A DNA stretch of 64,000 bases from Escherichia coli (GTDB taxonomy: Bacteria > Pseudomonadota > Gammaproteobacteria > Enterobacterales > Enterobacteriaceae), in the NCBI RefSeq assembly GCF_003334765.1, contig NZ_QOWT01000002.1. One strand, 5' to 3'. Under the pieces are notes generated by a model. The model did no database searches. It was not told where the DNA came from and saw nothing but the letters and a program-made list of their open reading frames with translations. The translations under genes were made by a program, and so were the position numbers. Below, one piece after another: positions 27,510 through 31,220 of this stretch; the stretch's first letter is position 1; each line of letters begins with the position of its first letter.

Positions 27510-29093
27510 ATGGAATGGATTGCCGATCCGTCTATCTGGGCCGGGTTAATCACGCTGATTGTGATCGAACTGGTCCTCGGCATTGATAACCTGGTCTTTA
27601 TTGCCATCCTCGCCGAAAAACTACCGCCGAAGCAGCGCGACCGCGCACGGGTTACCGGGCTGCTGCTGGCGATGTTAATGCGCCTGTTACTGCTGGCGTC
27701 AATCTCCTGGCTGGTCACCCTGACTCAACCGCTGTTCAGCTTCCGCTCGTTTACCTTTAGCGCCCGCGACTTAATCATGCTGTTTGGTGGTTTCTTCCTG
27801 TTGTTCAAAGCCACGATGGAGCTGAACGAACGGCTGGAAGGGAAAGACAGCAATAATCCCACACAACGCAAAGGTGCGAAGTTCTGGGGCGTGGTGACGC
27901 AAATTGTGGTACTGGACGCCATTTTCTCACTCGACTCAGTGATTACCGCCGTCGGGATGGTCGACCATTTACTGGTCATGATGGCCGCCGTGGTTATCGC
28001 TATCAGCCTGATGTTGATGGCCAGCAAGCCGTTAACGCAATTTGTTAACAGTCACCCGACGATCGTTATTCTCTGCTTAAGCTTCCTGTTGATGATTGGC
28101 TTTAGCCTGGTGGCAGAAGGTTTCGGCTTCGTCATTCCGAAAGGCTACCTGTACGCTGCCATTGGTTTCTCGGTGATGATCGAGGCGCTCAATCAGTTGG
28201 CTATCTTTAACCGGCGACGTTTTCTTTCCGCTAACCAGACGCTGCGCCAGCGGACTACCGAAGCGGTAATGCGCCTGCTTAGCGGGCAAAAAGAAGATGC
28301 GGAACTGGACGCCGAAACCGCGTCCATGCTGGTGGATCATGGTAACCAGCAGATCTTTAATCCGCAGGAACGGCGGATGATTGAGCGGGTACTTAATCTT
28401 AACCAGCGTACCGTCAGCAGCATTATGACGTCGCGCCACGATATTGAGCATATCGATCTCAACGCGCCGGAAGACGAGATCCGCCAGTTACTGGAGCGAA
28501 ATCAGCATACGCGGCTGGTGGTTACCGACGGTGATGATGCAGAAGATTTGCTCGGTGTTGTTCACGTTATCGACCTGCTACAACAGTCACTGCGCGGCGA
28601 ACCGCTCAACCTGCGGGTGTTGATTCGCCAGCCGCTGGTGTTCCCGGAAACCTTGCCGTTGTTACCTGCCCTGGAGCAGTTCCGTAATGCCCGCACGCAC
28701 TTTGCTTTTGTGGTGGATGAGTTTGGCTCGGTGGAAGGGATTGTGACATTAAGTGACGTCACTGAAACCATTGCCGGTAACTTACCGAACGAAGTGGAAG
28801 AGATCGACGCCCGCCATGATATTCAGAAGAATGCGGACGGTTCCTGGACGGCGAATGGTCATATGCCGCTGGAAGATCTGGTGCAATATGTGCCGCTGCC
28901 GCTGGATGAAAAACGTGAATATCACACCATTGCCGGGCTGTTGATGGAGTATTTGCAACGTATTCCAAAACCTGGCGAAGAAGTTCAGGTGGGGGATTAT
29001 TTGCTTAAAACGTTGCAGGTGGAAAGCCATCGCGTGCAGAAGGTGCAGATTATTCCACTGCGTAAGGATGGCGAGATGGAGTACGAGGTGTGA
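27510..29093 (+). CDS. yegH: TerC-family membrane protein with CBS pair and CorC/HlyC C-terminal domain, YegH
   Basis: ORF 27444..29093; start trimmed to ATG at 27510 ([16 protein letters not shown]). Domain order judged from sequence character and family knowledge. Confidence 0.88.
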
Positions 29094-29309
29094 TGGTATC
29101 GGTCATTTTACCCGATAGCCGAAAGGAATAAGATGAGGGAACCGCGCCAGCGGCGATTTACCGCCGGGAGCCCGGGTTGCCAGGGTGGTGGCGATTGAGC
29201 CACCCTGGCACGTTCACCGGCTTGAGCGTTCCATAGTAGTGAGGAACATCAAGTGAACGGAACAGCCTTCGATCTTACATATTCAGAATATAATGGTGCC
29301 GCCGCGAAC

Positions 29310-29346
29310 GCCTGATGCGACGCTTTACGCGTCTTATCAGGCCTAC
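29310..29346. repeat. REP element
   Basis: GCCTGATGCGACGCTTTACGCGTCTTATCAGGCCTAC, canonical REP palindrome between convergent yegH and asmA. Confidence 0.85.
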
Positions 29347-29366
29347 AGGACAGGTCACCTGGTAAC

Positions 29367-31220
29367 CTACATCTTCTCCAGCAACTTCTTCACATCTTTG
29401 CCATTGCGGGAATCTTTATTCCGCTCGGCCCAGTCATTCAGGCGACGTTTCGCTTCGTCCTGTAGATGTTTGCGCAGTAACTGATCCACTTGCAGACTGT
29501 AATTGAGTTGCTGCCAGTTGCCATAAACCCGCAGCGGTACTGGCGTTTCTTTGAGGAAATCAATCAGTTTGCTTTCCCCGTTCCAGCCACCCACGACCCG
29601 AATATCAAACTGGGTGTCGCAGGTTTGATCTGCCAGATTCAACATGCCTTCCCCTGTCAGCGCCAGCACAGGCGATTGACCTTGCATGTCGTTTAACGTC
29701 ACGACGCCATCCTTCAACGTCAAATCGGTGGTAAAGCGGTCAAGCCGCGTCACGTTATCAAAGTTTTCAGCGGCCTTCACATCACCGCCATTACGCTCTA
29801 CCGCTTGCTGAATCATCTGCTGGAAGTTCATCCCTTCCATGCGCGTGTCGGTCATTTTGACATGTGCCTGTCCTTGCCAGTTGTGGCGGAATGCGTCGGC
29901 ATCTATGTCAGCACCGGAGAAATCACCAGCCAGTGACATTTTTCCGGTCAACGAAATCGGATAGTTAAACGCCTTCAGAATGGTACCAATCTCAACGTTT
30001 TCCAGCCGTGGCTGGAAGTTTATCCGCGGATTTATTGATGTCGCGTCCAGCGTGCCCGGCAGTGAAACCTGTCCACCGTTAAGCTTGCCCTGCAGTTGAG
30101 TAATTTCCAGCAAACCCGACTTGTTGGTCATTTGCGTGGCAACATCTGTAAAATTCATTCCGCGCCAGCGCACGTTACTGGCCTGCAACAAAATATCAGC
30201 CGTAAAGCCTTGCAGTCCCTGATATGCCGGTTCATCAATACGCGAAGAAATGACCGGGCGCGGCAATGTTGATTGGCTCTGCCCCTGCTGCGCGGCACCG
30301 TTTTCACCATTCGCTGTTTCATTAAGCGGGATGAGGTTGTCAAGATTCAGTTGCGGGAATTGCAGTCTCAGCTGCCATTCAGGTTTCTCTGTCAGCGTGA
30401 CCTGTGCTTGCCCGCTCAGCGTGCTGTCATTGGCGGTCAAGCTGATTTGGTTAAATGAAAGGCGTTTATGTGACTCCTGCCACTGGGCCTGGAAACTCCC
30501 CTGCCCCTGAATACCTTGTTTTGGTAAATCTGCACCCTGCAACTGCCAGTTAATTTGTTCAATAGCCGCCGTTAAATCATGCGGATAATCAGAAGCATCT
30601 ACCGTACCGTTAAGGGATATCGTGAGATCGCGCTGATCGCGATTAACCCGCCCGGAGAACTCAAATGAGCCACGATGTTGGGGATCTTGTTCCATTTGCA
30701 GGCGGATATTGCGGATTGTCACCTGCTCGTCATCTTCATGCTGGAACACCAGCACGCTGTCCGCCACCTTAAGACTGGATATATCAAACGACCATCCGCG
30801 ATCGTCTGACAGATCCGGCAAGGTATTGTCGCGCGGTGCAACCGGAGCGTCTTCACTGCGCACCGCTTCCGTCTGCGGCGTCAGTTGGATCACTGCCCCT
30901 TTTAGCATCACCTGCTTAACGCTCAGTTGATGACTCAGTAGTGGTAAAAGCGCCACGTCCAGACGCATGTTGTCGGCGCGAACCAGTGGCTGGCTTGCGC
31001 CCTGGGCGGTGAGAGACATTCGCCCGGAGAGGATACTAAGCTGCGGCCAGACGTGCCAACGCAGTGGCCCGTCGAGCTGCAATTGATAACCGCTACGTGC
31101 AGCAACTTGCTTGACCATATAGTCGCGGAAATCATTCGGATTCACCAGCAACACTAACGCAGATAACCCGGCCACCAGCACGACCAGGAGTATCATCAGC
31201 GTCGTCAGAAATCGTCTCAT
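29367..31220 (-). CDS. asmA: AsmA (outer membrane assembly / AsmA-like lipid transport family)
   Basis: 617-aa ORF with N-terminal TM anchor (LMILLVVLVAGLSALVLLV); synteny upstream of dcd. Confidence 0.9.
   Translation of the reverse strand: MRRFLTTLMILLVVLVAGLSALVLLVNPNDFRDYMVKQVAARSGYQLQLDGPLRWHVWPQLSILSGRMSLTAQGASQPLVRADNMRLDVALLPLLSHQLSVKQVMLKGAVIQLTPQTEAVRSEDAPVAPRDNTLPDLSDDRGWSFDISSLKVADSVLVFQHEDDEQVTIRNIRLQMEQDPQHRGSFEFSGRVNRDQRDLTISLNGTVDASDYPHDLTAAIEQINWQLQGADLPKQGIQGQGSFQAQWQESHKRLSFNQISLTANDSTLSGQAQVTLTEKPEWQLRLQFPQLNLDNLIPLNETANGENGAAQQGQSQSTLPRPVISSRIDEPAYQGLQGFTADILLQASNVRWRGMNFTDVATQMTNKSGLLEITQLQGKLNGGQVSLPGTLDATSINPRINFQPRLENVEIGTILKAFNYPISLTGKMSLAGDFSGADIDADAFRHNWQGQAHVKMTDTRMEGMNFQQMIQQAVERNGGDVKAAENFDNVTRLDRFTTDLTLKDGVVTLNDMQGQSPVLALTGEGMLNLADQTCDTQFDIRVVGGWNGESKLIDFLKETPVPLRVYGNWQQLNYSLQVDQLLRKHLQDEAKRRLNDWAERNKDSRNGKDVKKLLEKM

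Follow-up and report, generated by a model that had tools for sequence, protein, structure and literature searches.

Between the convergent genes yegH and asmA of Escherichia coli lies a strong hairpin with no T-run behind it, which raises the question of what kind of element it represents. The sequence belongs to contig NZ_QOWT01000002.1 (RefSeq assembly GCF_003334765.1), of which a stretch of 64,000 nucleotides (nt), hereafter the window, was analyzed. A preliminary description of the sequence had located a perfect 10-bp stem with an 11-nt loop at 29179–29209, and these coordinates proved exact on direct reading. The 5′ arm GCCAGGGTGG occupies 29179–29188, the loop TGGCGATTGAG (11 nt) 29189–29199, and the 3′ arm CCACCCTGGC 29200–29209, with T29178 and A29210 forming an eleventh pair of the stem (29178–29210, + strand). 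The hairpin, hereafter named hp3, starts 86 nt past the yegH stop codon. It is very probably one helix in the decayed remnant of an intergenic repeat that is structured and dispersed, and the object to which it belongs is a truncated copy of an unannotated repeat resembling the RNA motif TwoAYGGAY, not a device of the yegH 3′ untranslated region (UTR) or a small-RNA gene.

The palindrome of hp3 taken alone is not compelling. Three places in the window (5 overlapping matches) hold a perfect hairpin with a stem of 10 bp or more and a loop of 3–15 nt, and 30 first-order Markov simulations gave a mean of 1.2 and a maximum of 5 matches, so the observed count hardly exceeds chance. The only other perfect hairpins of this size in the window are found at 56393–56430 and 56868–56896. 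The reality of hp3 is established by comparative evidence, as the helix recurs in related copies.

Blastn comparison showed that 29109–29283 (+ strand) is a 5′-deleted copy of the repeat, 99.4% identical to positions 118–292 of a trimmed full-length yegH-type copy (L006), and it is the sole copy in the window, since a blastn search with 63 family members matched this single locus. The L006 allele reads TTTTACCCAAT, then 178 nt, then CCGTACCCGAT, and the window allele lacks the 178 nt. This deletion sits at a TACCC(A/G)AT microhomology, and comparison with L006 places its junction within TACCCGAT at 29109–29116. The deletion, between two TACCC(A/G)AT motifs, took out the 5′ strands of the stems P1 and P2 together with the hairpins hp1 and hp2. 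Full-length units are found in many genera, which makes the long form ancestral and the window form a relic.

What is left in the window can be followed part by part on the + strand. The orphaned P2 3′ strand CCCGATAGCC (29111–29120) and the conserved junction GGAATAAG (29125–29132), both recognized in the alignments A1–A3, span 29111–29132 and are followed by hpX, a small hairpin of the form CCGC-GCCA-GCGG at 29142–29153 (helix 11, 99.6% paired across the family). Alignment to full-length copies then identified the orphaned 3′ strand of the closing stem P1 (CGATTT-ACCGCCGGGAGCCCGGG) at 29154–29176, whose 5′ partner strand is missing from the window by comparison with the full-length allele. 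Next come hp3 and the long hairpin hp4 (29211–29259), in which the base CGTTCAC/GTGAACG is conserved and covarying and the interior is variable, as indicated by helix 13 and the fold. At the other end, the predicted minimum-free-energy fold contains a new hairpin, GGTATCGG/CCGATAGCC, spanning the deletion junction at 29095–29120. The short palindrome CCGGGAGCCCGG at 29164–29175 had been noted as preceding hp3, under the term nested hairpins. It stands beside hp3, is part of the orphaned P1 3′ strand, and is unable to fold alone because its 5+5 inverted repeat has a spacer of only 2 nt.

The intact unit has a core of ~265 nt that folds on the + strand of the window, with its parts in the order P1 5′ strand, P2 5′ strand, hp1, hp2, P2 3′ strand, GGATAAG junction, hpX, P1 3′ strand, hp3, hp4, and AAC. 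The P1 5′ strand, for example CCGGTGTTGGTGGCG-TC-AAAATCGCC, precedes the P2 5′ strand GGCCGGGG, whose 3′ counterpart is CCCG..AGCC; the P2 pairs GGCCGGGG/CCCG..GCC (helix 6) are 100% paired in full-length copies. The loop of hp1 reads CA[U/G]GGAUG and that of hp2 CANGGANG. The P1 3′ strand pairs with ..GGGTCCGGCTGTAAATCG.., and helices 1–3 of this stem are 95–99.7% paired with 7 pairs changed on both sides; over helices 1–5, P1 comprises 21 pairs that are 92–99.7% paired, 12 of them changed on both sides. Two pairs of hpX changed on both sides as well, for instance to CCAC/GTGG in Klebsiella aerogenes. Helix 13 at the base of hp4 is 99.5% paired, with covariation at the pairs 245–291 (UA:38, CG:24) and 248–288 (AU:38, CG:17, UA:7). 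A third GGA hairpin (CCCCAGGGATGGGG or CCCCATGGATGGGG) was observed between the GGATAAG junction and hpX in Pseudescherichia vulneris (L038) and Silvania hatchlandensis (L142).

These values were obtained from MAFFT alignments and RNAalifold followed by pair counting, applied to 62 copies sharing <94% identity. RNAalifold returned 52 pairs, in which 97.9% of the cells were paired, compared with 87.6% in column shuffles (0/500 as high) and 38–46% when the partners were slid by 1–3 columns. Changes on both sides affected 25 pairs versus 6–10 in the slid controls. Moreover, G.U combinations filled ~107 cells and A.C combinations ~17, 11 of the latter in one misaligned column; G.U thus lies far above A.C, and the structure is therefore read on the + strand of the window.

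Because MAFFT misaligns hp3 between subfamilies, this helix was analyzed separately. A helix of at least 10 bp was present in 84 of 89 unique copies from many genera, with 32 distinct stem sequences. In intact units hp3 is a perfect stem of 10–13 bp with loops mostly beginning GGCG, and its stem variants include GCCAGGGTGG/CCACCCTGGC, TGCAGGGGGCGGC/GCCGCCCCCTGCG, GTCAGGGAGGC/GCCTCCCTGAC, GTAAAGGGGGC/GCCCCCTTTAC, and CAAAAGGAGGC/GCCTCCTTTTG, some of them unrelated in sequence. The preliminary description had proposed to look for compensatory changes across Enterobacteriaceae, and the outcome is strongly positive in these multi-genus copies. A pairing of the hp3 loop (GGCGAUU) with the P1 5′ strand (AAUCGCC) was also considered and rejected, as the Klebsiella copies with GGCGACUG and the copies with the GGCGGUGA loop do not covary with that strand.

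To what extent the repeat is dispersed was determined with blastn against 5426 complete E. coli genomes. The segment 29094–29300 found its orthologous site in most of them, together with weaker matches elsewhere in the chromosome, and the full-length allele matched all 5426 genomes at a median of 3 places (minimum 1, maximum 10). With the lysO-aqpZ copy of K-12 as the query, a near-full-length copy (at least 80% of the query) was detected in 5383/5426 genomes. Paralogous copies in E. coli lie at proX-ygaY, alx-sstT, lysO-aqpZ, and yohP-dusC, and K-12 harbors 3 copies detectable by blastn, two of which (lysO-aqpZ and yohP-dusC) are intact. In K-12 coordinates these two occupy about 915,019–915,299 (+ strand) and 2,229,066–2,229,437 (− strand), and the yegH-asmA spacer 2,139,486–2,139,758. 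The suggestion of a 3′UTR element of yegH as such is therefore not upheld, the module being found also 3′ of proX, alx, and yohP, in the lysO-aqpZ interval, and at dozens of loci unrelated to these in other genera.

Other enterobacteria carry the family too. A chromosome-sized Klebsiella pneumoniae record (filed under plasmids) matched at 13 places in blastn, and K. aerogenes, K. variicola, and Citrobacter matched as well. When each species was represented by a single genome, a scan with a degenerate pattern yielded at least 120 stretches, and at least 10 enterobacterial genera with copies were among the matches listed, including Enterobacter, Klebsiella, Kluyvera, Pluralibacter, Pseudescherichia, Lelliottia, Silvania, and Pseudocitrobacter, in addition to E. 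albertii. Klebsiella, Enterobacter, Kluyvera, Silvania, Pluralibacter, and others hold up to a dozen or more copies, with E. hormaechei DSM 14563 giving at least 15 in the scan. No RNA or repeat feature is annotated at the family loci in the RefSeq records examined, including those of MG1655 and W3110, and none of the papers searched contains the hairpin or hp1 sequences.

Several matches outside this range were set aside. Pattern matches in Desulfobacter, Alkalilacustris, Phycisphaerales, Acidobacteria, and other non-enterobacterial lineages were judged by eye to be chance. Copies of the Klebsiella or Enterobacter type also appeared in metagenome-assembled genomes of unrelated phyla (L036, Desulfacinum; L138, Sporobacter termitidis; L059, Bacillota), which, judged by eye, are most simply explained by contig contamination. 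A phage origin of the repeat was considered and discarded, there being no match among 50,697 phage records.

The intact copies have only one meaningful match in Rfam, namely TwoAYGGAY (RF01731), which aligns on the folding strand over the whole model (positions 1–168). The scores were 31.5 bits for L006, 28.2 for L001, 30.6 for the K-12 lysO-aqpZ copy, and 30.6 for the Silvania copy L139, below the gathering score of 43. According to Weinberg et al. 2010 (PMC2864571), TwoAYGGAY consists of two hairpins with AYGGAY loops and often a very long P1, occurs in gut metagenomes, gamma-proteobacteria, and Clostridia, and has no known function; it is rated there only as "probably" an RNA and not cis-regulatory. 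In intact members of the enterobacterial family, two neighboring hairpins carry A(Y/G)GGAY loops and are enclosed, as in TwoAYGGAY, by a long closing stem P1, which is complete in the intact copies and reduced to its 3′ strand in the window copy. In contrast to TwoAYGGAY, one of the family loops is usually AGGGAY, and the conserved elements hpX, hp3, and hp4 are added. In hp1 of the intact copies the loop reads either AUGGAU or AGGGAU, and in hp2 mostly AGGGAU or AGGGAC; a minority have AUGGAU in both.

The examined part of the original TwoAYGGAY alignment (PMC2864571) lists several copies per Psychromonas genome, a multi-copy state that the enterobacterial family shares, and none of the enterobacterial accessions searched for. 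Three Psychromonas seeds from that part, when folded, displayed two hairpins immediately after P1, one of them perfect and of 13–14 bp, and therefore a 3′ module analogous to hp3/hp4 accompanies TwoAYGGAY there too. On these grounds the enterobacterial family is treated as a divergent, extended relative of TwoAYGGAY, with scores under the gathering threshold and hence not a member by the Rfam criterion. The window copy, from which both GGA hairpins are deleted, has no Rfam match to TwoAYGGAY. The Rfam search proposed for the flagged region likewise returned nothing for 29110–29265, the only match being of the type of naRNA4, an RNA derived from repetitive extragenic palindromic (REP) sequences.

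The two loops raise the further question of what the intact RNA could bind. The recognition sequence of RsmE/CsrA is (A/U)CANGGANG(U/A). The second CANGGANG, which was not required by the pattern used to fetch the copies, occurs in 89/89 unique copies, and the spacing between the two GGA motifs is 27–29 nt. Such a spacing is within the range that a CsrA dimer can reportedly bridge, in work attributed to Mercante et al. in 2009. At least two consensus GGA loops at bridging distance are found in the intact copies only, and the window copy has none. The CsrA consensus obtained by SELEX is ruACArGGAugu with the GGA in a hairpin loop (PMC5694010), and in this respect the family resembles the CsrA-binding RNAs of the CsrB/CsrC/Rsm type, in which GGA in hairpin loops fits CANGGANG/ruACArGGAugu. 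It differs from them in having two sites per unit and no promoter or terminator of its own, and the window copy keeps neither site.

In intact copies, the paired GGA loops 27–29 nt apart would be the business end of the RNA, matching in geometry as well as in sequence a high-affinity site for a CsrA dimer, and hp3/hp4 would probably form its 3′ protective or structural module. It is tentatively speculated from sequence, as a possible though doubtful function, that intact members are dispersed and possibly mobile CsrA-docking RNA modules, in which the CANGGANG loops are held by a P1/P2 clamp and hp3/hp4 protect the 3′ end, so that read-through transcription would tether or titrate CsrA; in other lineages this device would be TwoAYGGAY, and the window copy would be its dead relic. 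An insertion of an IS110-family element was observed exactly inside the hp2 GGA loop (ACAAGGA | IS | CGTTACC) in the yohP-dusC spacer of E. coli CFIAFB20120266 (L014, locus 200–1500).

In Enterobacter the copies measure ~470 bp, and 26 of them have BoxC-like terminal inverted repeats of ~45 bp, with CCCTCTCCC..GGGCTGAGGGATCCCCAGTAATT at the left end and TTTGTGGGGAACCCTCAGCCC..GGGAGAGGG at the right, an organization resembling that of MITEs, small transposable elements with inverted repeats. Enterobacter copies (L026–L029, L056, L078–L092, L121–L130) also display an internal BoxC-like palindrome after hp4. Those copies of E. coli and Klebsiella that were examined lack terminal inverted repeats. 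Sites at gene ends are occupied differently between strains: the proX slot of K-12 (L017 3126–3316, proX-ygaY) contains REP sequences or bacterial interspersed mosaic elements (BIMEs) and in other strains (L010) the family element, and the alx slot (L018 3547–3944, alx-sstT) contains a BoxC-like repeat in K-12 and the family element in others (L011). Site presence/absence polymorphism together with dispersed copies, 1–10 per E. coli genome, is as expected of MITEs. The yohP-dusC copies of K-12 (L016 3103–3394, − strand) and of strain MS10711 (L013 1472–1763, + strand) are opposite in orientation and differ in sequence. One contig (L048) holds two head-to-head copies at 60–93 (−) and 467–500 (+).

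According to crude open reading frame (ORF) calls, 23 elements lie between convergent genes, 20 between tandem genes (12 sense, 8 antisense), and 2 between divergent genes, and a further 27 fell "inside" ORFs that are probably spurious. Gene ends are thus preferred, and orientation shows no clear bias. Could the family then be a mobile element of the MITE type that acts solely as DNA, whose helices serve transposition or recombination as single-stranded or cruciform DNA, with RNA being irrelevant? The inverted repeats framing the Enterobacter copies, the variable occupancy of gene-end slots by a multi-copy family, the convergent/3′ intergenic preference without orientation bias, and the inversion at yohP-dusC all speak for it. 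However, the E. coli and Klebsiella copies lack inverted repeats, and neither target-site duplications nor a transposase partner were found, with no systematic transposase search; the multi-helix junction, the invariant loops, and the excess of G.U over A.C are typical of RNA, and the sole library match is an RNA motif. The purely DNA-level account is thus considered unlikely, and mobility and RNA function are mutually compatible.

The structured repeat was also compared with known intergenic repeats. REP/BIME elements are similar in being GC-rich, palindromic, strain-variable, and located at gene 3′ ends, and they can serve as 3′ exonuclease barriers. Unlike the ~265-nt multi-helix unit, REP is a single palindrome of ~35–40 nt with no sequence similarity to the family, and hp3 bears no resemblance to the REP consensus palindrome (GCCTGATGCGACGC...GCGTCTTATCAGGCC type). 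At the locus itself the two are separate: a canonical REP palindrome lies at ~29306–29343 beside the asmA stop codon, apart from the relic, as the preliminary description had correctly held. The Rfam match of the naRNA4/REP type extends over 29271–29343 and is weak (33.1 bits, under its gathering score). BoxC-like repeats and MITEs are related to the family through the inverted repeats that frame the Enterobacter copies (CCCTCTCCC...GGGAGAGGG, GGGTGAGGG), yet hp3 lies outside those termini and the E. coli copies are without them. Another unexplained intergenic repeat of K-12, RSA, was listed in the original K-12 GenBank record with 150/151 bp and 6 copies (PMC5172473 Table 1). Its size class is near that of the window relic (~152–175 nt); in contrast, K-12 has 3 family copies rather than 6 and the family core is ~265 nt, a comparison made by length and copy number only. 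The current RefSeq records of MG1655 and W3110 contain no repeat features.

The upstream gene yegH, which encodes a TerC-family membrane protein, occupies 27510–29093 on the + strand (1584 nt; ORF list and the RefSeq annotation of a 99%-identical stretch), with its TGA stop read directly at 29091–29093, and asmA, the convergent downstream gene, occupies 29367–31220 on the − strand (ORF list and annotation). The 273-nt spacer between them in the window folds more stably than its shuffles on both strands (z = −4.6 for +, −5.5 for −). This spacer is polymorphic, with at least five alleles. ST131-like strains (U15A) possess the full-length allele, whose spacer is 178 nt longer than that of the window; L009 represents a different internal deletion at the same locus; ATCC 25922 has the REP alone; and in O157:H7 and other strains a module of a RelE/ParE toxin and a helix-turn-helix (HTH) antitoxin replaces the whole spacer, leaving no relic or REP. 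This module is located at 601–1345 in O157:H7 H2495 (L007), and in strain HS-02 (L008, 601–1312) what remains of a degraded RelE/ParE-HTH module comes after the relic. Of the 5426 E. coli genomes, 3937 cover at least 80% of 29094–29300, ~1425 of them with the long yegH allele. At yegH the junction abuts the REP, and a clean pair of empty and filled alleles showing a duplication did not emerge.

The absence of a T-run, from which the preliminary description concluded that hp3 is no classical intrinsic terminator, was borne out by a scan of both strands over 28800–29700, which found no stem-plus-T-run site; the sequence 3′ of the hp3 stem is ACGTTCACC, which contains no T/U run. DirectRNA-seq performed both in the presence of bicyclomycin and without it (Adams et al. 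2021, supplementary file 2) revealed a region of Rho termination for the asmA (−) strand, with its peak at K-12 position 2139476 (Rho score 7.7, p = 1e-18). This peak lies 9 nt inside the yegH 3′ end, equivalent to ~29084 of the window, and the asmA transcript therefore covers the spacer in full, lying antisense to the relic, and its termination is factor-dependent.

Do these surroundings give hp3 a function of its own? One possibility is that yegH and/or asmA have recruited hp3, along with hp4 and the REP, as a 3′ element under selection, acting as an mRNA stabilizer or a non-canonical termination or processing signal. The short distance of hp3 from the yegH stop in a convergent spacer without an intrinsic terminator would suit such a role, as would the asmA-strand Rho termination region at the spacer edge, and two independent internal deletions (the window type and the L009 type) both retain hp3 and hp4 in a locus whose truncated allele is common in E. 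coli. Yet the spacer is dispensable and interchangeable, as ATCC 25922 and O157:H7 demonstrate, truncations elsewhere drop hp3 just as readily (L121, L051, L086), and in other genera the hairpin has no tie to yegH, all of which makes co-option quite improbable. A self-standing small-RNA gene with its own promoter and hp3 as its terminator-like 3′ end is very improbable indeed: against the strong predicted structure of the region stand scans that found neither a sigma-70-like promoter nor a stem-plus-T-run here or at the two intact K-12 copies, and the window copy has lost its 5′ half. TwoAYGGAY, the Rfam relative, is presumably a small RNA, which lends that account some appeal. No promoter-like site near the hairpin emerged from the scan of the region, and sigma-54 or sigma-70 promoters inside hp4 or upstream of intact copies were rejected, their spacing being wrong by eye and the scans empty. 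The earlier idea of a small structured RNA was therefore close insofar as hp3 is part of a structured RNA, and failed insofar as it implied a separate small-RNA gene.

As a helix of a truncated repeat, hp3 would have no unit-level function left in the window and at most be a passive, very stable stem-loop in the overlapping yegH/asmA 3′ regions. Stable stems in regions of this kind commonly fix where transcripts end by halting 3′ exonucleases, as is established for REP elements, and hp3 may do so here. Overall, a passive present-day role appears most likely.

Several points weigh against the interpretation given here. The aligned copies are paralogous and come from a restricted set of genomes, and the cell counts consequently overstate the independent events. 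Invariance of GGCCGGGG, of GAGGG, and of the hp1 loop was imposed by the fetch pattern. The tandem contexts, with 12 sense and 8 antisense elements, are unexpected for a strand-specific cis-acting RNA. In the gene-level entries of a CsrA crosslinking and immunoprecipitation sequencing table, dusC and ybjE (lysO) are non-targets. The searchable published 3′-end tables show no yegH or asmA 3′ end at the hairpin, and the exonuclease-barrier role would follow by analogy with REP and is not a result.

Two other repeats of the window are distinct from the family. Three tandem direct repeats of ~328 nt, 72–92% identical, occupy 42096–43024, and we take them to resemble the sib/ibs ("QUAD") type I toxin-antitoxin repeats. 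Repeats inside coding sequence at 46600–50550, spaced 3081 nt apart and 72–76% identical, are probably two adjacent paralogous transporter genes of the mdtB/mdtC kind.

Considered as repeat debris, the odd hairpin is explained, and its lack of both a T-run and a gene-specific logic is accounted for. The finding at the locus is modest, and the family behind the hairpin is of moderate interest: a structured repeat with very strong covariation that is unannotated in the RefSeq records examined and lies under the Rfam threshold of its only relative. The orphan motif TwoAYGGAY thereby gains a large branch among enterobacteria, in a host that is amenable to genetics. The gene ends of E. coli appear as "slots" that are filled interchangeably by the family element, REP/BIME, BoxC-like repeats, or toxin-antitoxin modules. 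CsrA binding to the GGA loops of the K-12 lysO-aqpZ and yohP-dusC copies is a concrete, testable hypothesis; if it is true, these modules would bring the 3′ ends of genes into the reach of Csr control or, in Klebsiella and Enterobacter with a dozen or more copies, form a distributed sponge.

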